From an uncultured Bacilli bacterium (GTDB lineage: Bacteria; Bacillota_I; Bacilli_A; RF39; UBA660): a stretch of 64,000 nt of DNA. This document shows positions 7,707 to 48,368 of this stretch, one piece after another; position 1 is the first letter of the stretch, and each line of letters opens with the position of its first letter. Under the pieces are notes generated by a model. It was not told the origin of the DNA. It searched no databases and worked only from the letters and a program-made list of their open reading frames with translations. A program made the position numbers and the translations under genes. Where the stretch lies: the NCBI GenBank assembly GCA_944332715.1, contig CALVKN010000068.1:11572-75571 (forward strand), given 5' to 3'.

Positions 7707-8776
7707 ACCGTTCCCTCCCGTAAGATTGCCGCCGTCTCCGATAGCAGCGTGTCCATCTGTTCGTCCGTGCCGATCGTGATGCGCACAAAGTCGGCGATGC
7801 CGGGCTTGTCGAAGTGCCGCACCAGCACGCCGCGCGCCTTGAGCTGCGCGTACAGCGTCCCGCCCGCGATGGCCGGGTGCCGCGCGAACACGAAGTTCGC
7901 CAGCGACGGCAGCACCGAAAAGCCCAGCGCGGCGAGCGCCGCGGCGGTGCGCGCGCGCGTCTGCCGGATAGCGCCGGTGCAGGCGGCAAAATACGCCTCG
8001 TCCTCCATGGCCGCGAGCCCCGCCAGCTGCCCGGTGCGCGACACGTTGTAGGGGTTGAAGCTGAACTTCACCGTGTTCAGGTCTTGGATGAGCGCGGCGT
8101 CGCCGAGCGCCATGCCGAGCCGCATGCCGGCCAGGTTGCGCGACTTGGAGAAGGTCTGCACCACGAGCAGGTTGTCGTAGCGCCCAAGTAGCGGCACGGC
8201 GCTCTCCGCGCCGAAGTCCACGTACGCCTCGTCGATGACGACGACCCGGTCCGGGTTCTCCCGCACGATGGTTTCCACCTGCGCGCGCGAGAGCGCCATG
8301 CCGGTGGGCGCGTTCGGGTTGGCGAGCACGATCGTGCGGCCGAGGCGGAAATAGTCCTCCGGCGCGATGGAGAAGTCCGGCCGCAGCGGCACCTGCAGCG
8401 CGTCGGTGCGCGTGAGCGCCGCGTAGACCGGGTAAAACCCGTACGATACGGCCGGGAAGGCCACGCCGCACGACGGCGGGCAGAACGCCAGGAAGCAGAA
8501 CGCCAGCAGCTCATCCGAGCCGTTGCCGACGAGCACCTGCGCCTCCGTGAGGCCGTAGCGCCGCGCAATGGCGGCCGTGAGCGCGCCCGCGGCCGGGTCG
8601 GGATAGCGGTTGAGCAGCGCCGCGGCGTCCGCGTCCGCCACCGCCGCGACGACCTTTCTCGACGGCGGGAACGGGCTCTCGTTCGTGTTCAGCTTGACAT
8701 ACCGCCGGTTTTGCGGCTGCTCGCCCGGCGTATACGGGGCGAGCGCGGCCAGGCGCGGGTCCAGGAAACGGCTCAT
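7703..8776 (-). CDS. hisC: Histidinol-phosphate aminotransferase
   Basis: KLNTNESPFPP...TFSKSRNLAGMRLG class-II aminotransferase motifs. ATG at 8776. Confidence 0.92.
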   Translation of the reverse strand: MSRFLDPRLAALAPYTPGEQPQNRRYVKLNTNESPFPPSRKVVAAVADADAAALLNRYPDPAAGALTAAIARRYGLTEAQVLVGNGSDELLAFCFLAFCPPSCGVAFPAVSYGFYPVYAALTRTDALQVPLRPDFSIAPEDYFRLGRTIVLANPNAPTGMALSRAQVETIVRENPDRVVVIDEAYVDFGAESAVPLLGRYDNLLVVQTFSKSRNLAGMRLGMALGDAALIQDLNTVKFSFNPYNVSRTGQLAGLAAMEDEAYFAACTGAIRQTRARTAAALAALGFSVLPSLANFVFARHPAIAGGTLYAQLKARGVLVRHFDKPGIADFVRITIGTDEQMDTLLSETAAILREGTV

Positions 8777-8779
8777 CGT

Positions 8780-10060: not shown

Positions 10061-10680
10061 GCGCGGCACACCTCCGAAAGTTTTCCCGTCAGCGCCTTGA
10101 GCTCCGCCTCGTGGAAGCGGTAGCTGGCGCGCCCGGCGATCAGGCGCGCGCTGATGTCCATGATGCTCGACACGACCGACAGGTCGTTTTCCCGGAGCGT
10201 CGTGCCCGTCTCCACGATGTCCACGATCACGTCCGACAGGCCGAGCAGCGGCGCCAGCTCGATCGAGCCGTGCAGCTCGATGATCTCGATCTCGCGCCCC
10301 TCGCGCTGAAAGTGCGCGCGCGCGATGTTCGGGTATTTCGTCGCCACGCGCAGCGGGCCGACGCCCGGGTCCGAAAACCCGTTTTTGGCCGCGATGGCCA
10401 TGCGGCACCTGCCCACGCCGAGATCCAGCAGCTCGTAGACCTCCGCGCGCGACTCGAGGATGGTGTCCTTGCCGGCCACGCCGAGGTCGGCCGCGCCGCG
10501 CGCGACATACGTGACCACGTCCGTGGGCTTGACGAGAAAGTACCGCACGCCGGCGTCCGGGTTTTCAAACACGAGCTTGCGGCTGTCGTCCGCCACGCCG
10601 TCGCAGCAGTAGCCGACCTGCTCCAGCAGCCCGTAGACGCACCGGCCGAGCCGGCCCTTGGGCAGCGCGATGTTCAGCAT
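10057..10680 (-). CDS. hisG: ATP phosphoribosyltransferase, short form (needs HisZ)
   Basis: MLNIALPKGRL...ELHGSIELAPLLGLSDVIVDIVETGTTLREN HisG-short motifs, about 207 aa. Confidence 0.92.
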   Translation of the reverse strand: MLNIALPKGRLGRCVYGLLEQVGYCCDGVADDSRKLVFENPDAGVRYFLVKPTDVVTYVARGAADLGVAGKDTILESRAEVYELLDLGVGRCRMAIAAKNGFSDPGVGPLRVATKYPNIARAHFQREGREIEIIELHGSIELAPLLGLSDVIVDIVETGTTLRENDLSVVSSIMDISARLIAGRASYRFHEAELKALTGKLSEVCRA

Positions 10681-11777
10681 GAGGCCCCCTCCTTTCTAAG
10701 ATCGACCGTGCGGGCAAAGCGGCCCCCGGCCGGCGCCTCGGTCAGCGCCGTCACGCGCTCGCCCGCGGCGACGCGCGCCTCGACCGCCGCGCGCACGCGC
10801 TCGGGCGGCATGGCCGGGTCGTAGAGCAGCAGCGTGCCGCCGTCGTCCGCCGCCGGGGCGGGCAGGCAGCGCGCCAGCTCGCCGAGGTACAGCGCAAAGC
10901 CGATGGCGCGCATGGCGCCCTTGCCCATGCGCTCGAGCAGGTTGTCGTATTCGCCGCCGCGCAGCACCGGCACCGGCGCGCCCTGCACATAGCCGCGGAA
11001 CGCCACGCCGTTGTAATACGCCGTGTCGGACACGATGGAAAAGTCCAGCCGCACGCGGTCGCTGCACAGCGCGTCGCACAGCCGCTCGAGCGCGTCCGCC
11101 GCGCGGCGCATGCGGCCGCCCTGCGCCGCCCGGCGCGCCGCGGACAGCGCCTCCGGCACGGTGCCGGGCGCGGTGATGAGCGTGAGCAGCCGGTCCACGT
11201 CCGCGCTGCCGAGGCCCGCCCGCTCTGCGGTGGGCAGCAGGTCGTGCGCGTTCTTCTGCTTGACGCAGGCGAGGATCGCCTCGCGCGCGCCGTGCGGCAG
11301 CGACAGGCCGTCCAGCAGCGCGGAGAGCAGGTCGAGGTGCGACAGCTCGAGCGCGAAGTCCAGCCCCGTCTCCCGGAGGCTCTTTTCCGCGAGCGACACG
11401 ACCTCCGCCACGGCATATTCCGTCACGCAGCCGATGCACTCGAGCCCCATCTGCGACAGCTCGCGGAAGCCCCCCGCCTGCGCCGAGGCGCGGAACACGT
11501 TTTCGGCGTAGTACAGCCGCTGCAGCTGCGTGTTGTCGACCGGCACGCTGCGCACGATGGACAGCGTCACGTCCGGCTTGAGCGCCAGGAGCCGCCCGTC
11601 CAGGTCGGAAAAGACGGCGATCTCCGGCTGCTCGAGAAAATTGCGGTTTTCGATGTAAAACGCGTATTCCTCCATGTGCGTCATGGAGAAGGCGGCGTAG
11701 CCGTACTGCTCGTACAGGCGGCGCAGCGCGAGCGTCAGCGTTTCGAGCGGGCGCAGCGCGGGCAGGGCAGGCTGCAT
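10674..11777 (-). CDS. hisZ: ATP phosphoribosyltransferase regulatory subunit (HisRS paralog)
   Basis: Class-II aaRS-like HisZ. ATG at 11777 with AGGAGG at -8; first gene of the his operon. Confidence 0.85.
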   Translation of the reverse strand: MQPALPALRPLETLTLALRRLYEQYGYAAFSMTHMEEYAFYIENRNFLEQPEIAVFSDLDGRLLALKPDVTLSIVRSVPVDNTQLQRLYYAENVFRASAQAGGFRELSQMGLECIGCVTEYAVAEVVSLAEKSLRETGLDFALELSHLDLLSALLDGLSLPHGAREAILACVKQKNAHDLLPTAERAGLGSADVDRLLTLITAPGTVPEALSAARRAAQGGRMRRAADALERLCDALCSDRVRLDFSIVSDTAYYNGVAFRGYVQGAPVPVLRGGEYDNLLERMGKGAMRAIGFALYLGELARCLPAPAADDGGTLLLYDPAMPPERVRAAVEARVAAGERVTALTEAPAGGRFARTVDLRKEGASC

Positions 11778-11892
11778 GGCGGGTCCTCCTGTTCTGTGCG
11801 CCGGGCGTGCCCGGCGGGGATAGTTCAGCATAGCACGGCGGGCGGCGTTTGTCAATACGCTGCCGCGTTATCGCGCTAAAGCACGGAAGGGG

Positions 11893-11968
11893 GTGGCGGT
11901 TCAGCGGAAGTAGAGGTTTAGCGGAAAGCGGCGGTTCAGGGAAAGCGGTGGTTGCGGCGATGCGGGTC
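11893..11968. repeat. Four imperfect direct repeats of about 17-18 nt (GGTTCAGCGGAAG-like) in the his-operon leader, upstream of hisZ
   Basis: On the plus strand: GGCGGTTCAGCGGAAGTAGA / GGTTTAGCGGAAAGCGGC / GGTTCAGGGAAAGCGGT / GGTTGCGGCGATGCGGG, about 90-170 nt upstream of the hisZ start (which is on the minus strand). Confidence 0.5.
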
Positions 11969-12093
11969 GCCCGGAAGGGCAAGACGGGAAAAACCGCGCA
12001 TGCGGGCGCCGGGGGCCACGCGGCCAGCCGGCCGCGCAGGGGAGGCGTGCCGCCGGGGACAAGCCCGCCGCAGGCCGCGCAGGGGGAGCCGCT

Positions 12094-13296
12094 TTAGTGG
12101 TGGAACAGCCGGAGGCCGGTGAACGCCATGGCGATGCCGTGCCGGTCGCACGCGGCGATGACCTCCTCGTCCCGCACGGAGCCGCCCGGCTCGGCGATGT
12201 AGGACACGCCGCTTCGCGCCGCGCGCTCGATGTTGTCGGCAAACGGGAAGAACGCGTCGCTGCCGAGCGCCACGCCCGTTACCCCGCCGAGCCACGCGCG
12301 CCGCTCGTCCGCCGTCAGCGGTTCCGGGCGCGCGGAGAACAGCGCCTGCCATGCGCCGTCGGCGAGGACCGCTTCCGGCTCCGCGCCGAGATACTGGTCC
12401 ACCGCGTTGTCGCGCGCGGGGCGGCCAATGCCGGGCAAAAACGGGAGCTCCAGCACCTTCGGGTGCCGCCGCAGGTGCCACAGGTCGGCCTTGTCGCCGG
12501 CCAGGCGCGTGCAGTGGATGCGGGACTGCTGCCCGGCGCCCACGCCGATGGCCTGCCCGCCCGCGGCAAAGCACACGGAGTTCGACTGCGTGTAGCGCAG
12601 CGTGACGAGCGCCACGAGCAGGTCGCGCACGGCCGTCTCCGGCAGGTCGCGGCGGGCGGTCACGACGTTTTCGAGGCACGCGGGGTCGATCGGCTGCGCG
12701 CTGCGCGCCTGGGTGAACGTCACGCCGAACACCTCGCGCCGTTCGAGAGAAGGCGGCGCATAGTCCGGGTCGATCTCCAAAATGGTGTAGTTGCCGCCGC
12801 GCTTCTGGGTCAGCAGCGCGAGCGCCTCCGGCGTGTAGCCGGGGGCGATGATGCCGTCGGACACCTCGCGGCGCAAAAAGGCCGCCGTGCTCTCGTCGCA
12901 CACGTCGGACAGCGCGGCAAAGTCGCCAAAGCTGCTCATGCGGTCGGCCCCGCGCGCGCGGATGTAGGCGCAGGCGATGGGCGAAGGCGCGCCGATCCCC
13001 TCGGCGCGCAGCGCGCGCACGTCCGTCTCGTCGAGCGGCAGGCCGAGCGCCGCGCCGGCGGGGCTCACGTGCTTGAACGACGCGGCGGCCGGCAGGCCGC
13101 ACGCGCGCTTCAGCTCCCGCACGAGCTGCCAGGCGTTCAGCGCGTCGAGCAGGTTGATGTAGCCCGGCCGCCCGTTCCGCACGCGGAAGGGTAGCCCGCC
13201 GGGCGCGCTGACGCTCGCCGGGCGCTGATCCGGGTTGCAGCCGTATTTGAGGGGCAGTTCCTCGATGGGGGTCGGGTTGGCGGTTGGTTCCAGCAT
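12094..13296 (-). CDS. purH: Stand-alone AICAR transformylase (PurH C-terminal formyltransferase-domain homolog, no IMP cyclohydrolase domain)
   Basis: About 400 aa, consistent with the AICARFT domain only. It is adjacent to a PurO-like gene. ATG at 13296 with a GGAG Shine-Dalgarno. Confidence 0.75.
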
Positions 13297-13345
13297 GGGG
13301 AGTCCTTTCTCCCGCCCCGATGGGCGGGCTGCCGGGGGGCGGACG

Positions 13346-14068
13346 TCAGGATGCTGCGTCCGGCGCCTCCAGGCGGTTGATCACGTGTTCGGTACGGGCG
13401 CCGGTGGCCAGGTCGATGGCGCAGGCATAGACCGCCACGCGGTTGCGCGCGTCCAGCGCCCGATAGAGCGCCTCGGCCAGCTGGCGCGCCGTCTCCGGCA
13501 GCGCGACGGCGCGCGGCGCGCCCGCAAACGGCGGCAGCGGGTCGCCGTCGCCGGCATAGGTGTGCAGCAGCCGGCCCTCGCCCGGCGCCGGTGCAAAGGC
13601 GGGGAAATACGCCCGCTCGCACGCGCCGCCTGCCGTCCGGCGCAGAATGGCCAGCCGGCACGACACGGCGCCGCCTGCCGTGCGCAGCAGGCCGGCAATG
13701 CGCGGCGTGCAGTGCGGCGCATCCGGCTCGTATTCGCGCGTGTCGAGCGCCGCCTCCAGGCTGGCGCCGCGCGCGAGGCAGGCCGCCACGGTGTCGGTGT
13801 GGTCGCCGTTGGTGACGATCAGGCCGTCCGGCAGGTAGCGCACCGGCGCGTACAGGATCAGCGACGGGTCGGTGACCCGCGCCGGATCGACCGCCTGCGT
13901 GCGCACGCCGTCCGGCACCCGCACGAGGATGCGGTTGCGGCTGTTTTCGCTGCGGCCCATGAGGAAATAGGCGGCGAGTGCGGCTTTTCCGCTCTCACTG
14001 CGGCCGAGCAGCACGCCGCGTCCCGGGTAGGGGTTGGCGCCGAGGAGCGCTTTGAGGGATGGCAGCAT
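13346..14068 (-). CDS. purO: IMP cyclohydrolase, archaeal PurO-like type
   Basis: GRGVLLGRSESGKAALAAYFLMGRSENSRNRIL, TNGDHTDT and CTPRIAGLL resemble the PurO (PF07826) core as I remember it. AGGGAGGAA Shine-Dalgarno upstream of the second ATG (14068). Confidence 0.65.
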   Translation of the reverse strand: MLPSLKALLGANPYPGRGVLLGRSESGKAALAAYFLMGRSENSRNRILVRVPDGVRTQAVDPARVTDPSLILYAPVRYLPDGLIVTNGDHTDTVAACLARGASLEAALDTREYEPDAPHCTPRIAGLLRTAGGAVSCRLAILRRTAGGACERAYFPAFAPAPGEGRLLHTYAGDGDPLPPFAGAPRAVALPETARQLAEALYRALDARNRVAVYACAIDLATGARTEHVINRLEAPDAAS

Positions 14069-14145
14069 AGGTTCCTCCCTTAAAATCATATATAATCTTA
14101 TCTTATCTTATTGTAGTGTGCCGTCCGCCCCGTGTCAACGGCCAA

Positions 14146-14185
14146 AAAGACGGTCGCAGCGCCAGGGGCGCTGCGACCGTTGCCC
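14146..14185 (-). terminator. Rho-independent terminator after the lipoprotein gene (minus strand)
   Basis: Hairpin GGTCGCAGCGCCCCTGGCGCTGCGACC followed by GTCTTTTT, reading on the minus strand. Confidence 0.65.
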
Positions 14186-14237
14186 GGCACCGTCCGACGC
14201 CGCTGCGCTGCCGCTCCCGCCGGGAACGGCAGCGCTT

Positions 14238-14699
14238 TTACGGCGTCGCGTCCGCCTCCGGTTCGTCAAAGGTGATGTACAGGGTCAGGCAGCCGGGCAC
14301 ATAGCTGACGCTCAGCCATTTTTCCCCGTCCGACAACAGGTTGCCGATGGACACATAGTCCTGCCCCGCAATTTGCTCCGATACCTCTTCGATCACGGAA
14401 AAGCCGGCCTGTTGCAGGCGTGAGAGATAGTCGACGCAGTCCGCCTCGCTCAAGCCGGTCAGGCTGACGCTGCAGTTCCCGCGCGCCGTGTCGAGCATGG
14501 CCCAGTCGACCGTGCCCGGCGGGACGGGGAGGCCCTCCGTGTATGCGTTGGCCGGCCACATCCCTTCGTCCAGCATTTCGATGGTTTCGGGCGGCCGGCC
14601 GCCTGCGCTCTCTCCGGCGTCGGACGGCCCGTCCTGTTGAGAACACGCGCCGGAACAGAGCAGCAGCAGCACGGCGGATACACAAAGAAACTTTTTCAT
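14238..14699 (-). CDS. Putative lipoprotein, function unknown
   Basis: MKKFLCVSAVLLLLCSGAC signal peptide with a lipobox-like cysteine. GGAGG at -7. ATGA overlap with the upstream gene's stop. Confidence 0.7.
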   Translation of the reverse strand: MKKFLCVSAVLLLLCSGACSQQDGPSDAGESAGGRPPETIEMLDEGMWPANAYTEGLPVPPGTVDWAMLDTARGNCSVSLTGLSEADCVDYLSRLQQAGFSVIEEVSEQIAGQDYVSIGNLLSDGEKWLSVSYVPGCLTLYITFDEPEADATP

Positions 14700-15160
14700 A
14701 TGTTACCTCCTTTTTTGCGGATCGTGCGGAGGATCAAAACGACGGCGATGCAGGCGGCGAGCACGCCGGCCGCCAGCGCAATGTGCGGGACGTCAGGGCC
14801 AAAGGTCCCCACAACCTGCAGGTTCGTCATGGCGTCCGCCTGCCCGATGGCGCCTTCCGGCGCCCAGCCGGGCCGCGCGCCCGCATAGAGCGCGAAAGCC
14901 GCCGCCGCGACGGCGAGCGCGGAACCGCCTGCGACAAGCCCCCTGCGCCTGGCCCGCGCCGCGCGATCGACGCCGAACTGCTCCGCGATGCTTTCGGCAA
15001 ATTCCTGCGGCGTCCCCAGCCGCTCGATCACCTGCCGCTCCGTCTCCCCGTGCTCCAGCGCGGAGGCAAACGCCTCGTCCAGGTCGCGCGCGACTTTCCG
15101 CCTGACGCTTGGCGACCAGTTGAGTTCCCGTTTCACCTGCCTGATATATTGCCGTTTCAT
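14696..15160 (-). CDS. DUF1700-family membrane protein, the usual partner of PadR regulators
   Basis: N-terminus MKRQYIRQVKRELNWSPSVRRKVARDLDEAF, a C-terminal transmembrane segment, and ATGA overlap with the padR stop. The track ORF extends upstream; I treat that extension as spurious. Confidence 0.7.
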   Translation of the reverse strand: MKRQYIRQVKRELNWSPSVRRKVARDLDEAFASALEHGETERQVIERLGTPQEFAESIAEQFGVDRAARARRRGLVAGGSALAVAAAAFALYAGARPGWAPEGAIGQADAMTNLQVVGTFGPDVPHIALAAGVLAACIAVVLILRTIRKKGGNI

Positions 15161-15516
15161 GTTGCTTCCTCCGTTTGCCGGTAGCCGGCGATAAAACCGT
15201 TGACGCATTGCGCATAGCCCGACCAGAACCCGATCAGCTCGTCGAGCGTCTCCTTGCCCCTGTCGGTCAGCGAATAGTACTTTTTCGAGCCGCCGTTTGC
15301 CCTGGCCGGAGCCAGCCGGCACCGGACGAGGCCGGCCTCCTCCAGCCGGTACAGGATGGGGTAAATCGTCCCCTCCTTTGCAGATCCCCACACGGCCGCG
15401 CTGGCGTTCAATGCGGTGAGGATCTCATAGCCGTACGTTTCCCTGCACCCGATCAGGCACAGGAGCACCATTTCCAGGGAACCTTTTTTAAACTGCTGCA
15501 CATATCTGCTGTCCAT
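15157..15516 (-). CDS. PadR-family transcriptional regulator
   Basis: Winged-HTH PadR motifs (GYEILTAL...GTIYPILYRLEEAGLV...KKYYSLTDRG). ATG at 15516 with a GAGG Shine-Dalgarno. Confidence 0.85.
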   Translation of the reverse strand: MDSRYVQQFKKGSLEMVLLCLIGCRETYGYEILTALNASAAVWGSAKEGTIYPILYRLEEAGLVRCRLAPARANGGSKKYYSLTDRGKETLDELIGFWSGYAQCVNGFIAGYRQTEEAT

Positions 15517-15738
15517 GCGCGCCGCCTCAAACAAAATCTACTACTTAGCAATACTAAGTAGTAGCTTGATTATATCGACAATGGGGTGCGCTGTCAAGAG
15601 GCGGTTCGGCGCCTGCGGGGCGCGGACGGTGGGCAGGGCGCCCTGCAAGCGGGAGGGTTGCCGCATCGCGGCGGGCGCGCGCCTGCCTGCCCGTCCGCTT
15701 CCGGCGCCGGCGCCGCAAGGGGGGGGCGCGCCGGAGCG

Positions 15739-16920
15739 TCAGGCGCGCCGCGCGCTCGCGCGGTAATCACGGGGCGTTTTGCCCATGTAGCGCTTGAAGG
15801 TCTTGCAAAAGTAGTTGGCGTCCGGCATGCCGCAGTGCATGCCCACGGCCTGCACCTGCAGGTCGGTAGAGGCGAGCAGAAAGGCGGCGCGGTCCATGCG
15901 GCGGCGCGTCACAAAATCGGTGAGCGTCGAGCCGGTCTCACGCCGGAACAGCAGCGACAGGTGGCCGGGGCTGATGTTCAGCCGCTGCGCGAGCGCGTGC
16001 AGGCTGAGGTCGGCCGTGAGGTCGGCGTCCATGTGCAGGATGGCGTCGCGCACCGGGGCGGAGCGGTACGGCATGGCGCGCGCGTTCACGAGCGCGCAGT
16101 AGTCCTTCACCATGGCGAGGAACAGCTGCCGCGACTGGCCGGCGGACTGCAGCGCCTCGATGCGGAAGGCGTACTGGCGCGACAGCCCGTCGATATAGAG
16201 CGGATGCACGCCGCCGGCCTCCACCGCCTTGCGCAGCAGCGTGTTCATGATGATGGCATAGTTTTTGAAGTTGCGCACCGGGTCGGACGCGCGGCTCTCG
16301 ATTGCGGTCTGCCCGGCCATGGCGATGAGCCCGGTGGCCTCCTGCGTCCGGCCGAGCGAAACGGCCTGCAGCAGCCGCCGCTCATAGGCGTACCGCTCCT
16401 CAAGCAGCCGCGCTTCAAACGGTTCGGTGGACGGCACGTCGGCAGGTTCCACCAGGGTGGAGGCGGAGAAGTTCGTGTGCTGCACGGAAAAGGCTTCCAC
16501 CCCACCAAAGAGCGTTTCGCCAAGCGTGGCGAGCAGGGCCTCCATGACCCCGTCGTGCAGCAGCGCCAGGCTGCAGTAGTAGCGCCGCAGCGCGGGCAGC
16601 AGGCGTGGCGGCAGGTGCAGCCGGTCGAGCAGGGGGATGATCGCCTCGTCTGTCATCTCTTCATGCAGGTACGGGCCGATCAGCAGCGCCTCTCCCGTGT
16701 CCGGCAGGAGCGTACAGATGTAGCGGCAGGAGAAGTCGTCGTCCGCCAGATAGATGGCGTTTGGCTGCAACGTGGAAAATGGCGGGAACGGCGGCAGCCC
16801 GGCCTGCCGGCGCAGGCCCAGATCGACCTCGGGCGGCGCGTCCGGGGGGAAGCGCAGCACCTGTACGTTGAGCCGGTCGAGCAGCCGCCGCAGAAACAGC
16901 AGTTCGGGTTCGGGGAGCAT
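15739..16920 (-). CDS. AraC-family transcriptional regulator (C-terminal HTH_AraC), divergent from the transporter-GH2 gene
   Basis: C-terminal region ...LSLHALAQRLNISPGHLSLLFRRETGSTLTDFVTRRRMDRAAFLL...YFCKTFKRYMGKTPRDYR is a typical AraC HTH. ATG at 16920 with AAAGGAGG at -7. Confidence 0.85.
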   Translation of the reverse strand: MLPEPELLFLRRLLDRLNVQVLRFPPDAPPEVDLGLRRQAGLPPFPPFSTLQPNAIYLADDDFSCRYICTLLPDTGEALLIGPYLHEEMTDEAIIPLLDRLHLPPRLLPALRRYYCSLALLHDGVMEALLATLGETLFGGVEAFSVQHTNFSASTLVEPADVPSTEPFEARLLEERYAYERRLLQAVSLGRTQEATGLIAMAGQTAIESRASDPVRNFKNYAIIMNTLLRKAVEAGGVHPLYIDGLSRQYAFRIEALQSAGQSRQLFLAMVKDYCALVNARAMPYRSAPVRDAILHMDADLTADLSLHALAQRLNISPGHLSLLFRRETGSTLTDFVTRRRMDRAAFLLASTDLQVQAVGMHCGMPDANYFCKTFKRYMGKTPRDYRASARRA

Positions 16921-17214
16921 GGAGGAGCCTCCTTTCCTGGCGTTGCGCGCGGCCGGCGGGCGGGTCGCGCGGGGGAAAGACATGAAAATTTTACGAATAA
17001 TGGAGAGAATTTTACTATCTGCTCCGGGAATATGTTGATTATACTGTATTTGTACCAATTCCGAAACCCCTGATTTTTTCGCAAACAAAGGCCGCGGGCG
17101 GCACGCCGCCCGTCACACAGGCAGTATGGACGGATTTTGCCCGGCCGCCGCGCCGGATACATAGACGACGACCAAAAGGACAACAACATATATAAAAAGG
17201 AGGAGTTTCCCAAC

Positions 17215-20200
17215 ATGGAAGGCAAACCGACCGCCGCCCACCGCCCGTTCGGCATGCGGGACAACCTGGCGTATGCCGCGGGCGACTTTGGCTGCAACAT
17301 GAGCTTTGCGCTCAAGGGCACGCTGGTCATCTTCTGGACGCAGTACATGGGCATGGACTCGCTGCTCTACGCCGCGCTGCTGCTCATCGTGCAGGTCTGG
17401 GACGCGATCAACGACCCGCTCATCGGCGCGCTGATCGACGCCGACCGCCGCCGCTACAAGCTCGGCAAGTTCAAGGCGTACATCTTCGCCGGCTCCATCG
17501 GCCTGGTGGTCGCGGGCGCGCTGTGCTTCATCCCGTGGCCGAGCGCGCCGGACATCGCCAAGAACATCCTGTTCGTGGCCGGCTACATCATCTGGGACGC
17601 GTTTTACACCGTGGCCAACGTGCCCTACGGCTCGCTGCTGTCGCTGATCTCGTCCGACCCGGGCGACCGCGCGGCGCTGTCCACCTGGCGCAGCATCGGC
17701 TCGCTGCTGGGCAACATCGCCACGATGGTGCTCATCCCGCTGCTGATCTACGACGCGAACCAGAACATTGTCGGCACGCGCGTGTTCTTTGTGGCGCTGA
17801 TCATGGGCGTGATCGGCTTTGCCGCCTTCCAGTTCATGATCCGCAACACCGAGCAGCGCGTGGAGGCGGAGCCGCCCGCCAAGGCAGAGAAACAGAAGTT
17901 CAACGTGTTCAGGGCCATGGGCAACTTCGTCAAAAACCGCGCCGCCGTCGGCACGACGCTCGCGGCCATGGGCATGTTCATCGGCATGCAGGGCGCGACC
18001 GCGGCCGTGACGGTGCTGTTCCAGTCGTATTTTAAAAACGTGCAGCTCTCCGGCGTCGTGCAGATGTTCGCCATGCTGCCGATGATCGTCTTTGCGCCGT
18101 TCATCCGCCGGTTCTCGGTCAAATACGGCAAAAAGGAGATCTCGGCTGTCGGGTCGCTCTGCAGCGTGGCCGCCTGCGTGCTGCTGCTCGTGCTGCCCAT
18201 CACGCCGAACACCATGGGCATGGTGCTGTATGTGGCGTGCCTGCTGCTGTACAGCCTCGGCGTGGGCGTGTACAGCTGCGTGAGCTGGTCGCTCATGGCC
18301 GATGCGATCGACTACAACCAGTGGCGCTTCGGCATGCGCGAGGAGGGCACGGTGTACTCGCTCCACTCCTTCTTCCGCAAGCTGGCGCAGGGCCTCGGGC
18401 CGTCGCTCGTGCTCGTGATCATGGTTGCGCTCGGCTATGTGGAGGAGAACCAGGGCGCGCAGACGGCCGACGTGGCGCTGAACATGCGCTATCTGGTGGC
18501 CGGGCTGTACCTGTTCAGCGCGCTGATGCAGTTTGTGTCGCTGGCGTTTATCTACAACATCGATAAAAAGACGCTGGCGCGGATGAACGCGGAGCTGCTG
18601 GCGCGCAACGAAGGGGATGGCGGGGCCGCACAGGCGCCGGATCCGGGGTGTGCCTGTGCGCGCGACGTCCGCCCGCTGAACGACGGCTGGACGTTCACCA
18701 AGCCGGGGCAGCCGGCGCAGGCCGTCACGCTGCCGCACACGTGGAACGCCGAGGACGGGCAGGACGGCGGCAACGACTACTATCGCGGCACCTGCCGCTA
18801 CGAGCGGCGCATCGCGCGCAGCGAGCTGCCGGCCGGCGAGCGGGTGTACCTCGAATTGCAGGGGGCGAATTCCTCTGCGGACGTGACGCTCAACGGGACG
18901 CCGCTCATGCACCACGACGGCGGCTACTCCACGTGGCGCGTGGATTTGACCGACGCCCTCCGGGATGACAACGTGCTGACGGTGGACGTGGACAACGGCG
19001 CGAACGAGCGCGTCTACCCGCAGATGGCCGACTTCACGTTCTATGGCGGGCTGTACCGCGAGGTCCGGCTCATCGGCGTGCCGGCCTCGCACTTCGACCT
19101 GGATTACTGCGGCGGCCCCGGCATCGCCGTCACGCCCGCCCTGTCGGGGGACGACGCGGACGTGACCGTGCGCGTGTGGCTCACCGACGCGCGGGAGGGG
19201 CAGCAGCTTCGCTATACGCTGTCCGACGCCGCGGGCGAGGCCGTGGCCACGCAGACCGTGCCGGCCGGGCAGGACGAGGCCGTGCTGCACATTGCGGGCG
19301 TGCGCCGCTGGCACGGGCGCAAGGACCCGTACCTGTACACCGCCCGGGTGGAGCTGCTCGACGGGGAGGCCGTGCTCGACTGCGTCGGCGCCCGCTTCGG
19401 CTGCCGCACGTTTGCAATCGACCCGGACCGCGGCTTCCTGCTCAACGGGGAGGAATACCCGCTGCGCGGCGTTTCCCGCCACCAGGACTGGAAGGGCATT
19501 GGCAACGCGCTGCACGCAGAGCACCACCGCCGCGACGTCGACCTGATCTGCGAGCTGGGCGCGACGACCGTGCGCCTTGCCCACTACCAGCACAGCCAGA
19601 CGTTCTACGACCTGTGCGACGAGCGCGGGCTCGTCGTGTGGGCGGAGATCCCGTACATCTCGCGGCACATGCCCGGCGGGCGCGAAAACACGCTCTCGCA
19701 GATGCGCGAGCTGGTCGTGCAGAACTACAACCACCCGTCCATCGTCGTGTGGGGCCTGTCCAACGAGATCACGATGAACGGCGAGAACGACCCCGACCTG
19801 ATTGAGAACCACCGCCTGCTCAACGACCTGTGCCACGAGCTGGACGCGACGCGCAAGACGACCGTCGCCGTGGTGTCGATGTGCGACATCCACGCGCCGT
19901 ACCTGTCCATTCCGGACGTGGTGTCCTACAACCACTACTTCGGCTGGTACGGCGGCGACACGGACATGAACGGCCCGTGGTTCGACCACTTCCACAGCGA
20001 GCGGCCCGATTTGCCCATCGGCATCAGCGAGTACGGGTGCGAGGCGCTGGATTGGCACACCTCCGACCCGCAGCAGGGCGACTACACCGAGGAATACCAG
20101 GCGTATTACCACGAGGAGCTGATCCGGCAGATCCGCGAGCGCCCGTACCTCTGGGCGACGCACGTGTGGAACATGTTCGACTTTGGCGCCGACGCGCGCA

Positions 20201-43850: not shown

Positions 43851-44050
43851 GTCAAAAGTGTATGCTGGATCGCGGCCGGTTATGCGCCCGGCGGGCCTGC
43901 CGGGGGCAAGGAGAGCCCGCCCGCGCCCTGCCCGGGCGCGAGGGCGGCGCGCCGCCGGATTGCCCTGCGGCGCGGCGCGAATTTTACTTGACACGCGCGG
44001 AGAACTCCTCTATAATAGACTGGCACGCGGGGTTCCCGCGGCAGGTTTGT

Positions 44051-44127
44051 GGCGGCGTAACTCAGCTGGCTAGAGTAGTCGGTTCATACCCGGCCTGTCA
44101 TCCGTTCGAGTCGGATCGCCGCTACCA
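44051..44127 (+). tRNA. tRNA with anticodon CAT (Met, or Ile2 if lysidine-modified)
   Basis: Manual cloverleaf: acceptor GGCGGCG/CGCCGCT, D-arm ACTC/GAGT, anticodon stem GTCGG/CCGGC with loop TTCATAC (anticodon CAT), T-arm ATCCG-TTCGAGT-CGGAT, and a 3' ACCA tail. The 1-72 G-U pair argues against the initiator. Confidence 0.85.
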
Positions 44128-44156
44128 CATGGTAGTCGCCGTTTCTGGCGGCAGCA

Positions 44157-44185
44157 GAAAAAGCCCGTTTGAACGGGCTTTTTTG
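44157..44185 (+). terminator. Rho-independent terminator after the tRNA
   Basis: AAAAAGCCCGTTTGAACGGGCTTTTTT. Confidence 0.85.
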
Positions 44186-44267
44186 TTGCGCTCTCGTCTG
44201 CGTTCTCGTCTTTGCCGCGCTCTCGCCGCTCGTCCCGTGATTCCGTTTTGACCACCGCGCCCGCCGG

Positions 44268-45374
44268 TCAGCCGCCGCCCTTCGCCTGGCCGCCCGGAAA
44301 GCCGTCCTCCGGCGCGCCGGGGCGCAGCAGGCCGCCCAGCTGCTGCGCCAGCGCCGCCACGGCCTGCGCCGCGCCGGCGGCCTCGCGCCGCTGCTCGGGC
44401 GGCCAGGCGTCCAGCGGGGCACGCGCGCACTCCTCCAGCAGCTGGGCGAGCGCCGCGCGCAGCGTGCCGCAGCGCGCGCACAGACCCTGCGCCCCCACGC
44501 CCGGCTGCGCGCTGAGCGTCTGCTGCAGCGTGGCATACCGCAGCGCCATGTCCCGGTATCGCCGCCGCGCGGCGCTCAGCTGCCGCCCCTTTTCCCGCGC
44601 CTCCAGCGCGTGGCGCGCCGCCTCCTCCCGCGTACGCTCGGACAGCGACTGCAGCTCCAGCACCTGCCGGCGCAGCGCCGTGTCCGCCGTGCTGCCGAGC
44701 GCGCGGCGCAACTGCGCGTTGGACTCCTCGAGGCGGTGCAGCTTCTGCTCCATGCCGTCGATCTGGTCGGAAGCGGCGCTCTCCAGCGCCTCCAGCTGGG
44801 CGTTGCAGCGCTGCAGCCGCTGCACCTCTGCCCGCAGCTTCTGGTAGGCGGCGTTCACGGAGATCTGCCCCTCGTCCAGGCTGCGGATCAGCTCTGGCGG
44901 GGCGTGGCTCACGATGTACTTGGCCTGGCGGTACTTGTCCCGCCCGCCGATGCCGGCCTGCTGCGCCACGGCCTCTTCCACGCGGCCCACCGGCGCGCCC
45001 GCCGGCCGCTGCGCCCCCGGCAGGTTGGCCGCAGAGTTGCCCGCCGCCACCTGCCGGAGCGCCGCTTCCAGCCGCGCCGCCCAGCGCATGCGCTCGGAAA
45101 ACGTGAAGTCCTTGCGGTTTTCGTTCTCGCTGACCTCCAGCCGGAGCAGGTGCACCGCGTCCCGCACGGGCATGACGCGCACCTCGAGCTGCTTCCAGCC
45201 GAGCGACTTGCACGCGCGCAGCCGCCGTTCCCCTGCGATGAGCAGCAGCTCCGGCGTCACGAGCGGCGGCTGGATGAGCCCGTTTTCCGCGATGTCCGCC
45301 GCCAACTCCGCCACGTCGCCATAGTCCCTGCGGATCCGGTCCGCCAGCCGGATCCGGTCGATGTCCACCAGCAT
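44268..45374 (-). CDS. ParB/Srx-fold (ParB N-terminal nuclease-like domain) protein with a long C-terminal coiled-coil
   Basis: N-terminal MLVDIDRIRLADRIRRDYGDVAELAADIAENGLIQPPLVTPELLLIAGERRLRACKSLGWKQLEVRV with a GERR-like motif. Coiled-coil heptads follow (QLEALESAASDQIDGMEQKLHRLEESNAQLRRAL). Strong promoter TTGTCA-17-TATACT upstream on the minus strand. Confidence 0.7.
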   Translation of the reverse strand: MLVDIDRIRLADRIRRDYGDVAELAADIAENGLIQPPLVTPELLLIAGERRLRACKSLGWKQLEVRVMPVRDAVHLLRLEVSENENRKDFTFSERMRWAARLEAALRQVAAGNSAANLPGAQRPAGAPVGRVEEAVAQQAGIGGRDKYRQAKYIVSHAPPELIRSLDEGQISVNAAYQKLRAEVQRLQRCNAQLEALESAASDQIDGMEQKLHRLEESNAQLRRALGSTADTALRRQVLELQSLSERTREEAARHALEAREKGRQLSAARRRYRDMALRYATLQQTLSAQPGVGAQGLCARCGTLRAALAQLLEECARAPLDAWPPEQRREAAGAAQAVAALAQQLGGLLRPGAPEDGFPGGQAKGGG

Positions 45375-45569
45375 TTCGCGTCTGTCCCCTCTCTTATGGA
45401 TTTCAGAATGCAAACATTTGTTCGTATAAGGCAGTATAACATGGTATACTGCAAATGACAACCGGCCCGGCCGGTTTTTTCACGGGTTTTTTGCGCGGGT
45501 GCCGGCCCGCGCGCCAAGTGGCGGAAATCGGCCGGCCGGCATGGACACGAGCACGGAAAGGGGAGCAAC

Positions 45570-46748
45570 ATGGCACGACGGGAGAGGATACGCATCGGCG
45601 CGGTGGACGCCACGGCGCTGTATACGGAGCGGGAACGGGCGCTGGACGAGCGGCTGCGGCGAGCCGTGCGGAACCGGGTGCGGTACGAGCGGGCGCGGCG
45701 GGTGGTGCGCGCGTGCGCTGCCGGGCGGCGCGGGGAGCGGCAGGCGCTCGCGCAGCTGGAGCGCATCTATGGGTATGCGGTATTCCTGCTGCCGGAGGAG
45801 GACGAGCTTGCCGCCGCCATTGCCGCCTGCCGGGCGGAGGCCGCCGCGCAGCGGCGGGCGCTGCGCGCGGCGCTCCTGGCGCACGCCGGGCCGCGCAGCC
45901 TTGCGCCGGAGCGGGCGCGCGCAGGGGACGGCGCGTCGCTGCCCGCGTCGGCGCTGACGCGGCAGCTCGGGCTGCGGCCGGGCGCGCGCACCGGCGCGCT
46001 GCTCCTCGTGCGGGCGGCGCGGCCGGAGGCGCTTTTCAGCCTGGCGCGGCACGGGTTCACGGTGGGCGGGGCGCGCTATGTGGCGCTGGCCGCCGCGCCC
46101 GCGCCGGACGCGCTGCTGTTTCTGCGCGAGACGCTGTTCCGGCGGCATGAAAAGGCGCTGCTGGGCGGGCTGACCCGTGCGCGCATCCGTGCGCTGGCCG
46201 GCCGCCGGGCGGACCCGCGCGCACCGCTGCAGGCCTGCGCGGAGGCGACGGAACCGTGGGCGGCGTTCGACATCGGGCGCGCGATCGTGGTGGACGACGT
46301 GCCGCTGCCCGCGGGCGGCGCGGCGCCGTTCGGGCTCGTGCTGCCGCAGGTTTCGGGCGGGGCGGCGGTGCACGTGCGGCTGCCGTGGATCGAGGGGCGG
46401 CTGGAGCCGTTCCCGTTCGACGCGTTCCTCCGGGCGCGCGGCCAGGCCGGCCGCACGGTGCGCGACATCTACGGCAAGACGCACGACGTGCTCGCGGAGG
46501 GCGTACAGGTCATCTTTACGCGCAGCCAGTTCCGGCTCTGGCGGTGCTATGCGTGCTGGGCGGAATACCGCCTGTATTTTCGCGCGTACGGCTGCGAGGC
46601 GGAGCGCCGCGCCGCGCCGGCGGGCGCGTGCGCGGCGGGCGGGGCGGACGCGCGCGCCTTTTGCGAGCGGCTGTTTGGCGCCCGGCGTGCCCGGCGGCGG
46701 GCGGGACGGCCCGGCGCGGGCGGCGCGGCGCAAAGCGACGGGGAATGA
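45570..46748 (+). CDS. Hypothetical protein, no recognisable domain, first gene of the plus-strand NlpC/P60-holin cluster
   Basis: 392-codon ORF with AAAGGGGAG at -7 to -13, co-oriented and nearly contiguous with the downstream NlpC/P60 gene. Arg/Ala-rich, as expected at this GC content. Real coding status rests on the RBS and operon context only. Confidence 0.5.
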   Translation: MARRERIRIGAVDATALYTERERALDERLRRAVRNRVRYERARRVVRACAAGRRGERQALAQLERIYGYAVFLLPEEDELAAAIAACRAEAAAQRRALRAALLAHAGPRSLAPERARAGDGASLPASALTRQLGLRPGARTGALLLVRAARPEALFSLARHGFTVGGARYVALAAAPAPDALLFLRETLFRRHEKALLGGLTRARIRALAGRRADPRAPLQACAEATEPWAAFDIGRAIVVDDVPLPAGGAAPFGLVLPQVSGGAAVHVRLPWIEGRLEPFPFDAFLRARGQAGRTVRDIYGKTHDVLAEGVQVIFTRSQFRLWRCYACWAEYRLYFRAYGCEAERRAAPAGACAAGGADARAFCERLFGARRARRRAGRPGAGGAAQSDGE

Positions 46749-46775
46749 GGAGGAAAGGGGAATGAGGAGGAAACC

Positions 46776-47510
46776 ATGGTGGAATATACGAGATTGCTCA
46801 AACATTTGATGAAAGGCGACGACGTGCGGGCGGTCAAGGACCGGCTCGTGGCGCTCGGCTATCTGCATGCGGCGACGCACGACACGTTCGGGGACGACAC
46901 GCTGGAGGCGGTGCGGTCGTTCCAGCGCGCCGCGGGGCTCACGGTGGACGGCGTCGTGGGCCCGCTCACGTGGGCGGCGCTGTTTGCCGACGGCGCGCCG
47001 GAGCCGCCCGCGCCTGCCACGCCGTCGGATCTGGCGGAGCGGATGTGCGCGCTTGCCCAGCAGTACATCGGCCATCCGTATGTGTGGGCCGCGTCGGGGC
47101 AGGAGAACCCGACCGACGGCGACATCCGCGGCCTGGACAAGACGGAGGCGGACGCGGAGCGCTCCATCCGCTTTTGCGACGCGCTTCGGCGCGGAGGCGT
47201 GACGCAGATGCGCTGCTTCGACTGCTCGGGGTTCGTGTCGTTCCTGCTGCGCGAGGTGGGCGCGTGGGACGGGCGGCGCGACTGCGACGGGCTGTGGGGC
47301 TATTGCACGCCGCTGGCGCGGAGCGAGCTGATCGCGGGGGATTTCGTGCTGCGCGGGAGCGACGGCGACAAGACGCACATCGGCCTGTATGTGGGCGGCG
47401 GCTGGGTGGTGCACGCCAAGGGGCGCGACGACGGCGTGGTGAAGGAACCGGTGCAGCAGAGCGCGGGGTACTGGAAGTACTTTGGGCGTTGCCGCCTGCT
47501 GTACCCGTGA
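46776..47510 (+). CDS. Cell-wall hydrolase: N-terminal peptidoglycan-binding domain (PG_binding_1) plus C-terminal NlpC/P60 (C40) peptidase; endolysin-like
   Basis: VKDRLVALGYL...TLEAVRSFQRAAGLTVDGVVGPLTWAAL is a PG_binding_1 domain. CFDCSGFVSFLL ... H(IGLYVGGGWVVHA) is the Cys-His NlpC/P60 core. GGAGGAAACC Shine-Dalgarno. Confidence 0.8.
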   Translation: MVEYTRLLKHLMKGDDVRAVKDRLVALGYLHAATHDTFGDDTLEAVRSFQRAAGLTVDGVVGPLTWAALFADGAPEPPAPATPSDLAERMCALAQQYIGHPYVWAASGQENPTDGDIRGLDKTEADAERSIRFCDALRRGGVTQMRCFDCSGFVSFLLREVGAWDGRRDCDGLWGYCTPLARSELIAGDFVLRGSDGDKTHIGLYVGGGWVVHAKGRDDGVVKEPVQQSAGYWKYFGRCRLLYP

Positions 47511-47519
47511 GGTGGCGCG

Positions 47520-47837
47520 ATGGACGTGTGGGAGATCGTGCAGGCGGCGCTGCCGTCGCTGCTGGTGTCCGTCGCCATGGGGGTGTTCAGCCGCCGCCAG
47601 AGGAAGCGCGACGCGGCCACGCGGGAGCGGGAGGCGGCGCGGCTCGAGGCGGAGAACGTGCAGGTGTCGCTGCTCGTGGCGAGCGCCAAGCTGTCGTACG
47701 CGCTGGCCATGGCGGCCAAGCGCGGCGCGCCCAACGGCGAGGTGGAGGACGGCGTGGAGCAGTACCGGGAGGCGATGCGGGCGTTCAAGCGCCTGGAGCG
47801 CAAGCTCGTCGCCCGGAACAACTCCGAGGGGGCGTGA
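47520..47837 (+). CDS. Small single-TM protein of unknown function (N-terminal TM, charged coiled C-terminus)
   Basis: MDVWEIVQAALPSLLVSVAMGVFSRRQRKRD... one TM then an Arg/Glu-rich helix. GAGGTG Shine-Dalgarno. Tightly packed between the P60 gene and the holin. Confidence 0.55.
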   Translation: MDVWEIVQAALPSLLVSVAMGVFSRRQRKRDAATREREAARLEAENVQVSLLVASAKLSYALAMAAKRGAPNGEVEDGVEQYREAMRAFKRLERKLVARNNSEGA

Positions 47838-47941
47838 CGCGCCGCCAGGCACGGGGGCGCGCTTTGCGCCATATGATGAAAGTGGGCGGCGTGTGCGGCG
47901 CCGCCCGAAACCGACCAAGGAACGAAAGGAGAGAACACGAC

Positions 47942-48145
47942 ATGAAGGCCAATTTCATACTGTGGCTGAAAGCGGCGGCGGTGCGCGCGGTAAAGACGCT
48001 CGCACAGACGGCCGTGGCGACCATCGGCACGACGGCGATGCTGTCGGAGGTGGACTGGGTGCTGGTGGCGTCGGCCTCGGCGCTTGCGGGTATCCTGTCC
48101 ATCCTCACGAGCGTGGCCGGTCTGCCCGAAGTGAAGGAGGAATAG
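47942..48145 (+). CDS. Small phage-type holin (about 67 aa, 2 TM; Phage_holin_1 / phiLC3-like)
   Basis: MKANFILWLKAAAVRAVKTLAQTAVATIGTTAMLSEVDWVLVASASALAGILSILTSVAGLPEVKEE has the K..TxxQTxVAxIG pattern, two TM helices, and a charged C-terminal tail. AAAGGAGAG Shine-Dalgarno. Confidence 0.65.
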   Translation: MKANFILWLKAAAVRAVKTLAQTAVATIGTTAMLSEVDWVLVASASALAGILSILTSVAGLPEVKEE

Positions 48146-48149
48146 CGTA

Positions 48150-48220
48150 GGCCGACCGGCCTGGTCGGCTGTTTGACGGCGGGGATGCGCGTCCGGGGGA
48201 CGCGCATCCCCGCCTTTTTG
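48150..48220 (+). terminator. Tandem hairpin terminator after the holin
   Basis: GCCGACCGGCCTGGTCGGC followed by TGTTT, then GGGGATGCGCGTCCGGGGGACGCGCATCCCC followed by GCCTTTTTG. Confidence 0.75.
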
Positions 48221-48277: not shown

Positions 48278-48368
48278 AAATTGAACTTTTATCAACAAAT
48301 TGAACTTCCAAAAAGATATTGAACTTTTGTGGGTGGCGTGGTATAATGCTCAAACAGATTGAACTTTC
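48278..48368 (+). promoter_or_regulatory. AT-rich promoter region with four TTGAACTT direct repeats (19-nt spacing for the first three) flanking an extended -10 (TGGTATAAT), upstream of the HTH-aminotransferase gene
   Basis: AATTGAACTTTTATC...AATTGAACTTCCAAA...ATATTGAACTTTTGT...TGGTATAATGCTCAAACAGATTGAACTTTCGAGGAGG. The fourth copy lies between the -10 and the RBS. Confidence 0.6.

Follow-up and report, generated by a model that had tools for sequence, protein, structure and literature searches.

What leaves a set of phage lysis genes beside a tRNA gene on a bacterial chromosome, with no structural or integration gene nearby? This question is raised by a stretch of 64,000 nucleotides (hereafter the window; ~69% GC) from an uncultured Bacilli bacterium of the GTDB lineage RF39/UBA660 (GenBank assembly GCA_944332715.1, contig CALVKN010000068.1, positions 11,572 to 75,571). 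Within it, positions 44051-48220 hold a tRNA gene and, behind it, a cassette of five genes: a minus-strand gene for a ParB-like protein and four plus-strand genes encoding a 392-residue protein, an endolysin, a 105-residue membrane-anchored protein (orf105) and a holin. An earlier note, made from the letters of the sequence, had described this cassette as phage-derived although not an intact prophage, and in this it was right. Gene calls and Pfam searches in syntenic strains place only host genes in the 10 kb to either side of the cassette, with no integrase, terminase, capsid or tail gene among them. Our analysis indicates that the cassette is probably what deletion has left of a large, SPbeta-like temperate phage with its own YonO polymerase, surviving as a cryptic remnant.

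Results

A predicted fragment of a YonO-type RNA polymerase

The origin of the cassette is most readily traced through its 392-residue open reading frame (ORF; 45570-46748, plus strand), which finds no match in Pfam, NCBIfam or PADLOC or in a sequence search of the PDB, and which the earlier note had left without an assignable function. Homology, profile and fold comparisons now provide one. In a tblastn search of phage genomes, residues 109-341 match a protein annotated as DNA-directed RNA polymerase, YonO, in SPbeta, phi3T and the Goe phages, as well as a homologue in Clostridium phage D-1873, with E values down to 2e-23 against the SPbeta-like phages. Against the 847 positions of PHROGs family phrog_8308 the ORF scores an E value of 5.6e-28, its rear part falling on family positions 256-349. 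An exhaustive HMMER search returned 202 relatives; among the 150 of these that were listed, most are 820-1060 residues long and homology to the query always stops at about residue 344-346. Residues 1-346 (45570-46607), referred to here as yonO', are colinear, from the first residue on, with residues 1-371 of the full-length two-barrel RNA polymerases that make up the YonO family. Furthermore, an AlphaFold2 model of the ORF, built with 46 homologues, has a pLDDT of 88, being confident to about residue 370 and disordered over residues 374-392, and its only significant PDB matches in a Foldseek search are themselves two-barrel polymerases, the RDR2 enzymes of maize and Arabidopsis (E 3e-4). Taken together, these comparisons identify the ORF, at the level of sequence and predicted fold, as the N-terminal ~40% of a two-barrel RNA polymerase of the YonO family, its catalytic half gone.

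In homology and fold the ORF belongs with the YonO family; it has neither the full length of the family, nor its catalytic triad, nor its SAGQIRTKK and HTDGCG segments. The DxDGD triad, whose columns are nearly invariant in full-length members, is absent together with the second barrel and everything beyond it. SAGQIRTKK is replaced by AAAPA and a 3-residue gap (S176A, A177P, G178A, K180D, K181A), and a 23-residue in-frame deletion removes the HTDGCG segment. YonO requires the aspartate triad for its activity (Forrest et al. 2017, PMC5467207). Since the triad, the second barrel and the lysine motif of the first barrel have all been lost, yonO' cannot polymerise. The Pfam RdRP model, which matches the orthologue on a related contig, L089, does not match the window ORF. 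The fragment yonO' is less similar than the L089 orthologue to all 48 of 48 full-length outgroup sequences (27% versus 39%) and keeps 44 of 71 family-conserved columns where L089 keeps 67, with 7 further conserved columns deleted. Its GC content at second codon positions, 0.58, is the highest among the local genes. The loss of similarity to outgroups and the base composition both point to long-term decay of the polymerase fragment.

The last 46 codons of the ORF (46608-46748) show no significant YonO homology and no codon periodicity (GC of 0.87/0.81/0.85 at the three codon positions), and, when set against the genes that lie ahead of the endolysin gene in related phages, bear no resemblance to their 3' ends. 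This tail is probably junction sequence left by a deletion. Its interpretation as a C-terminal piece of L089 YonO was rejected, the best local alignment being equalled by 14 of 500 shuffles; a resemblance between ADARAFCERLF in the tail and the family motif PDLYAFCEWLF is suggestive and scores below even that rejected alignment. The tail varies among strains, some of which lack 12 nt of it and have an ORF of 388 rather than 392 residues. A 17-bp tandem duplication (GGGGAATGAGGAGGAAA twice; 46740-46773, plus strand) takes in the stop codon of yonO' and the ribosome-binding site of the endolysin gene, and is present only in the window haplotype (also in L202, L203 and L208), other strains having a single copy.

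Short YonO hits of ~350-430 residues were considered as a natural short form of the protein and rejected; several run to the protein end in the manner of fragments at contig edges, and one (P0025) carries a frameshift on a contig with 2.4x coverage. In phage c-st, the YonO homologue CST179 (L008 14743-16419) bears the published annotation 'N-ter only' and is 558 residues long, against 886 residues for the D-1873 version, from which it follows that truncation or splitting of yonO is met in further phage genomes as well.

Layout of a related phage locus

Contig L089 (ENA ERZ28566297, ASCI21-1_SAMEA7045476 scaffold_760; 42.4 kb) presents an arrangement that matches one side of the cassette. On it, a ParB-like gene is divergent from a gene for a 917-residue YonO, behind which follow the SPbeta-type YomW, YomV and YomU tube protein. 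This YonO matches phrog_8308 from end to end (E 1e-217) and, compared with residues 1-344 of the window ORF, has 50% identity. A 58-residue ORF called upstream of L089 yonO has its start within the promoter block and is unlikely to be a real gene. Viral contigs that carry YonO mostly measure 100-170 kb. No tRNA gene is present in the 17.5 kb of L089 examined.

Beyond its ParB-like gene, L089 holds a second mobile element (8577-17575) of lower GC content, the integrase gene having 46% GC against 64-68% for the phage genes measured. This element comprises a tyrosine integrase, helix-turn-helix (HTH) regulators, an Xis-like HTH_17 protein, a MobA/MobL relaxase, TnpV and a beta-lactamase-family gene.

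The ParB-like gene

The minus-strand gene facing yonO' (44268-45374) encodes 368 residues and appears intact. The ParB N-terminal domain, the coiled coil and the gene's own promoter had all been recognised in the earlier note and are confirmed here; the length of 397 residues given there is not. A start at TTG 45461 would carry the ORF through its own promoter and was rejected, and the start at 45374 is the one called for this gene in all relatives. The protein matches Pfam ParB_N (PF02195; 31.5 bits against a cut-off of 26.3) and phrog_12047 (E 6e-63), combining an N-terminal ParB/Srx domain and a GERRLRA arginine patch with a long C-terminal coiled coil. ParB and Noc structures in the PDB align with residues 12-104; the TIGR00180, RepB and Noc models score below their cut-offs. 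There is no ParA-like gene within 10 kb and no recognisable parS site at the locus, although no search aimed at parS was made.

Identity amounts to 49% with CST185 of phage c-st and 74% with the L089 homologue (P0154, which a 68-kb contig also carries), and comparison with an outgroup reveals no rate asymmetry (50% versus 52%). In phages c-st and D-1873, and likewise in three IMG/VR contigs, a ParB-like gene is found at a distance of 2-7 kb from yonO. Hence a protein previously regarded as having no assignable function can be placed, by profile and gene neighbourhood, in a family of phage ParB-like proteins whose genes recur in the neighbourhood of yonO.

Some strains (L003, and L090 at 11120-11210) have an extra ~80 bp close to window position 44262-44274, in the stretch that separates the tRNA terminator from the ParB stop codon. 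The insert repeats CCGCCGGTCAGCCGCC around the ParB stop codon and represents a local duplication, of which L207 has a shorter version.

The shared control region

The 195-bp spacer between the ParB-like gene and yonO' contains a block of ~40 bp that is conserved between the window and L089. The conservation of this block is notable because the proteins encoded to either side are only 50-74% identical. Within it, a palindrome on the minus strand (45411-45424), CGAACAAATGTTT, fits the Gram-positive SOS-box consensus CGAACRNRYGTTYC at 13 of 14 positions and is the sole exact match to the core of that consensus in the 64 kb, where 0.15 would be expected. The orthologous site in L089 is a perfect palindrome, CGAACATTTGTTCG, and the only GAAC-N4-GTTC in that locus. 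The predicted transcription start of the leftward ParB promoter overlaps the box, as does the -35 zone of a rightward element, so that 45411-45424 has the features of a LexA/DinR-type operator, a Gram-positive box overlapping a promoter, and is predicted to be one.

The ParB-like gene promoter, TTGTCA-17-TATACT with a TG (45433-45461, minus strand), was recovered by consensus scan; by inspection its counterpart in L089 reads TTGCCT / TATAAT. A candidate extended -10 element directed towards yonO', TGgTATACT (45442-45450, plus strand), was picked out by eye and is absent from the simple consensus scan; its L089 counterpart, likewise by eye, is TGgTATGAT. In the yonO' leader stands a hairpin, AACCGGC-CCG-GCCGGTT (45460-45476), with a T-run behind it (to 45480), and a hairpin with T-run occupies the equivalent place in L089. 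The LexA-like box, both -10 elements and the hairpin are invariant across strains of the species. The earlier note had drawn attention to a hairpin abutting the TTGTCA-17-TATACT promoter. Both exist, yet the fold is ordinary (z -0.6 and +0.5), and neither the hairpin as a terminator nor an alternative long-range fold of the leader stands out from shuffled sequence; at most, it may conceivably serve as a leader terminator.

When the conserved operator block was used in an exact-match scan of viral sequences, no hits were obtained. Nine metagenome hits were found at unrelated loci; at least two of these (L218 and L219) have the appearance of SOS boxes, each a short way upstream of a gene transcribed divergently.

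The lysis module

The four plus-strand genes lie where the earlier note had placed them, and the three behind yonO' resemble a phage lysis module. The endolysin (244 residues; 46776-47510) carries PG_binding_1 (64.8 bits) and NLPC_P60 (44.6 bits) domains in Pfam searches, and its catalytic cysteine (DCSGF) and histidine (HIGLY, VVHA) motifs can be read in the sequence. Its closest homologues, 67-71% identical, are situated at the ends of phage late operons behind giant tail proteins, and each is followed by an orf105 homologue and then by a small holin of a different family. With its wall-binding domain, catalytic residues and setting in a lysis module, the protein is predicted to be an NlpC/P60 phage endolysin. 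orf105 (47520-47837), which has an N-terminal membrane helix and a charged helical tail, is 66% identical to its homologue in L171 and represents the conserved partner found behind this type of endolysin in phages. The 67-residue protein (47942-48145), whose gene begins 430 nt downstream of the endolysin gene, matches Phage_r1t_holin (PF16945) at 60.4 bits against a cut-off of 26.9 and belongs to the holin family phrog_443; profile, small size and adjacency to the endolysin are all those expected of an r1t holin, as had been proposed. A search of IMG/VR for endolysin relatives, which might have revealed the parent phage, produced none.

The module closes, as the earlier note had it, with a double-hairpin intrinsic terminator (48150-48219, plus strand) that includes a 17-bp stem with 14 GC pairs and a T-run (fold z -6.0). 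Ribosome-binding sites are good in front of all four plus-strand ORFs and intact for all five genes, and the endolysin start codon is only 28 nt past the stop codon of the yonO' ORF. A consensus scan of 5.5 kb identified three promoter-like sites, against 0.3 expected, belonging to the tRNA, the ParB-like gene and a downstream aminotransferase gene; it found none directly in front of the endolysin or holin genes.

The 104-bp spacer between orf105 and the holin gene (47838-47941) has 1 segregating site in 16 assemblies, where ~10 would be expected at intergenic density. It holds a 10-bp GC stem (GGGCGGCGTG / CGCCGCCC region) with no T-run and a fold that is not unusual (z -1.3), and may be an RNA element or a processing site.

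Boundaries and flanks of the cassette

To the left, the cassette adjoins a tRNA-Met gene with the anticodon CAT and an encoded CCA end (44051-44127, plus strand; Rfam tRNA 52.7 bits), the sole tRNA called by ARAGORN. It is not an initiator tRNA, because it has G1·U72 and no GGG/CCC anticodon stem. Its promoter, a sigma-70-type TTGACA-17-TATAAT with 12 of 12 matches (43988-44016, plus strand), belongs to the host flank outside the phage remnant. Behind the tRNA stands an intrinsic terminator (44158-44184), with an A-run, the stem GCCCGT/ACGGGC and a T-run, which folds on both strands (z -4.9 on the plus and -3.6 on the minus strand) and ends both the tRNA transcript and the convergent ParB-like transcript. 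The tRNA and its terminator were thus correctly called in the earlier note. The suggestion made there that the tRNA marks an integration site is not supported: the only full match to the tRNA 3' end in the 64-kb window is the tRNA itself, the cassette is not flanked by direct repeats and there is no integrase gene. Two 15-mer near-matches to the tRNA 3' end, at 11949-11963 and inside the ParB-like gene at 45056-45070, are not at a boundary. The tRNA is simply the left neighbour of the cassette, and nothing shows a role for it as an attachment site.

To the right, the first gene is that of an aminotransferase bearing an HTH domain at its N terminus. The segment 48280-48366 contains ATTGAACTT in four exact direct copies, against 0.06 expected in the window, three of them at a spacing of 19 nt and the fourth 40 nt further on. 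They straddle the promoter of this gene (48319-48347) and look like operator repeats for autoregulation by the HTH-aminotransferase.

Elsewhere on the chromosome, one strain (L205 1-9888, L228 488-4136) carries an integrative element directly upstream of ychF that replaces the glnS/gltX neighbourhood. Its genes encode a tyrosine integrase, a Tn916-type Xis, IstB, NikA/MobC, AbiEi/AbiEii, an N6/N4 methyltransferase and a ResIII helicase.

Distribution and selection among strains

Assemblies of the species were retrieved from several metagenome cohorts, and in every one that was read the cassette is found at the same chromosomal site. The holin sequence is listed, in identical form, in 195 index blocks, and the contigs read from these all give the same context. 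For polymorphism, 16 assemblies of this one species were aligned, representing 15 haplotypes. All five ORFs are open in 16/16, with no stop codon and no frameshift, and neither was found in any short-read assembly. Apparent pseudogenes (endolysins of 185 and 184 residues, a yonO' of 352 residues and a 192-residue fragment at 78% identity) were attributable to long-read indels or to a scaffold gap of Ns.

Under a neutral model that incorporates the observed transition bias and a doubled mutability of G and C, the expected synonymous fraction is 0.35. Over residues 1-346, yonO' has 49 synonymous and 32 non-synonymous changes (P 3.5e-6 against neutrality), with a diversity of 84 against an intergenic expectation of 100. 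The endolysin has 21 and 14 (P 1e-3; diversity 40 against 70). The holin, with 2 and 1, provides too few sites for such a comparison, and its diversity is 3 against 20. Ratios for the ParB-like gene (19 to 23; diversity 43 against 106) and orf105 (8 to 9; diversity 22 against 30) are not significant. The synonymous skew in yonO' is absent from the other two reading frames and survives the assumption that only G and C mutate, under which a fraction of 0.40 would be expected at third positions and 49 of 84 are observed. Omega for yonO' is estimated at about 0.35. Additionally, the 1038 nt of yonO' contain no indel, in contrast to several in the spacers that flank it. The endolysin, the holin and yonO' behave as expressed, constrained genes under purifying selection, which is a lead and not a proof of function; such selection would imply that at least part of the remnant is still used.

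In the same strains, diversity at third codon positions differs about threefold between yonO' (49/346) and the ParB-like gene (17/369), which suggests different coalescent or recombination histories of these neighbouring segments.

Discussion

A probable deletion remnant with possibly rewired lysis genes

Our findings are best accommodated by a prophage of the L089 type that has been reduced from within, and a single such prophage with an internal deletion would be the simplest history. The parent would have possessed a ParB-like early gene divergent from yonO across a short shared control region, with the late structural genes behind yonO. One or more internal deletions would then have removed nearly everything between about codon 346 of yonO and the endolysin gene, leaving the ParB-like gene, the control region, some 346 yonO codons, a junction, the endolysin, orf105 and holin genes and their terminator. 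The non-coding-like junction would happen to keep the frame open to 392 codons.

In SPbeta, the late operon has the lysis genes at its end, and YonO transcribes these together with the structural genes (PMC5467207). Lysis genes that were YonO-dependent in the parent would, after the deletion, stand behind the early promoter of yonO', which is read by the host polymerase. Because the ParB/yonO control region holds the only promoter-like signals left upstream, yonO', endolysin, orf105 and holin are probably one unit transcribed by the host polymerase. This unit would normally be off, and it is possibly controlled by LexA and responsive to DNA damage; here we infer a single transcript, binding of LexA and induction by damage from the arrangement of signals.

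Several observations weigh against this reconstruction and have to be set beside it. The closest relatives of the lysis module reside in a phage of ~37.5 kb with ERF and SSB genes, in which YonO was not seen in the ~21 kb examined, and a common parent of this module and the ParB-yonO' segment could not be established. The junction tail has no significant similarity to anything that would fix the number and order of the deletions. We found no strain or sister species with an empty site, and insertion at this site is therefore itself an inferred event; when the downstream aminotransferase was used as a query in a scan of genome contigs, it returned 80 loci of at most 81% identity, none with a shared neighbourhood. 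As to regulation, the LexA-like box is absent from 73 other yonO loci and so is not general to yonO upstream regions, the rightward promoter was recognised by eye, the consensus scan finding none on the plus strand in the cassette, and the leader hairpin is energetically unremarkable. Finally, purifying selection on a catalytically dead yonO' fits poorly with a simple picture of decaying junk.

Alternative explanations

The provenance of the lysis genes bears most directly on whether the cassette is instead a composite, in which ParB-yonO' and endolysin-orf105-holin stem from two prophages that occupied the same site at different times and each shrank by deletion. The phage with the nearest endolysin and orf105 relatives, which also carries an HNH gene, would sit comfortably with such a history. 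Holins have been swapped between otherwise similar modules, indicating that the lysis module is mosaic, and no sequence ties the junction to either parent. With 17.5 kb of the 42.4-kb L089 contig examined, a composite origin retains some weight. It nonetheless demands more events than one internal deletion. Moreover, the lysis genes of SPbeta lie downstream of yonO on the same strand in a YonO-dependent operon, in the order seen here (PMC5467207), and GC content is similar across the cassette (0.65-0.77). We accordingly regard two successive prophages as unlikely, though worth keeping in mind. Far less can be said for a small mobile element, such as a satellite or an integrative island, that targets the tRNA-Met gene. 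A neighbouring tRNA, a compact form and a terminator on each side would suit such an element; genes for an integrase, an excisionase, replication or packaging are absent from the cassette, as is any att-like repeat of the tRNA end, and the identical holin appears in only one chromosomal context across many samples. This reading is effectively refuted, and we give it hardly any credence.

What the remnant is worth to its host divides the other explanations. It could be inert and on its way to deletion, its ORFs being open only since stop codons are rare at 72-77% GC. Only ~2% of random mutations in yonO' would make a stop codon; the catalytic half of yonO' is gone, as are a third of the conserved residues; and both the polymorphism of orf105 and the synonymous to non-synonymous ratio of the ParB-like gene are indistinguishable from neutral. 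Such inertness is, however, hard to square with the significant synonymous excess in yonO' and the endolysin, confined to the annotated frame, with a diversity in the holin and the ParB-like gene far below the intergenic level, with the lack of indels in yonO' next to spacers that have them, and with intact ribosome-binding sites and invariant promoters and LexA-like box. Inert junk thus appears a rather improbable description of the whole. The earlier note had raised the opposite prospect, that holin and endolysin were domesticated for non-lytic release of a protein or toxin, or for lysis of the mother cell in sporulation. Intact ORFs in every strain examined, purifying selection on both lysis genes and a spore-forming host with spoIIR, sleB and ypeB 3-5 kb downstream speak for some such role. 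No toxin or other secreted cargo gene is adjacent, however, and the sporulation genes are outside the cassette in the conserved host flank, beyond three non-phage genes (aminotransferase, cobW and ferredoxin). The sole regulatory signal found is SOS-like rather than sporulation-like, although no search for sporulation promoters was made, and PADLOC and NCBIfam give no dedicated host system. The proposal consequently found no support in our analysis, and we judge it very unlikely.

Implications

It is tempting to speculate that the remnant has been exapted as a module in which dead yonO' and the ParB-like protein act against superinfecting YonO-dependent phages, alongside an SOS-controlled switch for suicide lysis. 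The fragment may titrate a specificity or assembly partner of the incoming polymerase, or occupy its late promoter. The rewired holin-endolysin pair would then, if this is true, bring about suicide lysis triggered by damage or infection. We consider this combination improbable as it stands.

The deletion remnant that we favour has consequences of a more general kind. YonO-type genes can survive as truncated ORFs that Pfam, NCBIfam and PDB sequence searches leave unnamed, and annotators of gut Clostridia will meet them. SPbeta-like, YonO-encoding phages would have lysogenised very high-GC spore-formers among the gut Clostridia, and the phages of this lineage have a ParB-like gene opposite yonO, with an operator resembling a LexA box in the control region between the two. 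The selection signal, if true, provides a natural case of a dead polymerase fragment that is kept. Equally, a lysis cassette shifted from phage-polymerase to host control would exemplify a simple route from prophage to host-owned lysis switch. Should neither the selection nor the rewiring hold, the locus is an ordinary cryptic prophage remnant.

Comparison with known systems

Among related polymerases, YonO, the single-subunit enzyme of the Bacillus subtilis prophage SPbeta, is 27% identical to the window fragment, the D-1873 homologue 32% and the L089 homologue 50%. The fragment is colinear with the first ~370 residues of SPbeta YonO and of its homologues in the Clostridium botulinum phages c-st and D-1873 and shares their start context, and in SPbeta yonO is likewise upstream of the lysis genes on the same strand. 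It differs in having 40% of the length, in lacking the triad, the second barrel and the C-terminal zinc-ribbon-like CxxC pairs, and in its destroyed SAGQIRTKK motif and two internal deletions. Furthermore, yonO of SPbeta faces the gene for the YonR repressor, whereas yonO' faces a ParB-like gene.

The proteins of phrog_12047, namely CST185 of c-st and ORF013 of the Staphylococcus phages EW and 85, have the same ParB/Srx domain and GERRxRA patch as this ParB-like protein. Like the window gene, theirs belong to the early region of temperate phages and show recurrent linkage to yonO. The chromosomal CTP-dependent clamps ParB, Noc and KorB are comparable in domain and patch. The window protein is set apart in that it has no ParA partner or recognisable parS, scores well short of every equivalog cut-off (ParB, RepB and Noc), and devotes its C-terminal half to a long coiled coil.

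Lysis modules under LexA control are known from colicin lysis genes and from phage switches governed by SOS boxes. With these LexA-controlled colicin and prophage modules the cassette would share a Gram-positive SOS-box consensus placed over the sole promoters found upstream of a lysis operon. In the window the box is predicted from sequence and limited to this yonO lineage, and there is no cargo gene.

As a cryptic prophage remnant, the cassette is of a kind already known, and it is new in its details: a truncated two-barrel polymerase gene that resists annotation, an operator resembling an SOS box, and signs of maintenance for both a dead fragment and the lysis genes. The cryptic prophages Rac, Qin and DLP12 (the last with its S/R/Rz lysis cassette) of Escherichia coli K-12 similarly retain lysis genes. 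In common with them, the cassette appears to be a chromosomally fixed deletion remnant without structural or integration genes in which a holin-endolysin pair is intact. It departs from them in its probable parent, a giant YonO-type temperate phage of a high-GC spore-former, in the position of its lysis genes behind the early promoter of a phage polymerase gene, and in the selection that appears to act on the polymerase fragment itself.

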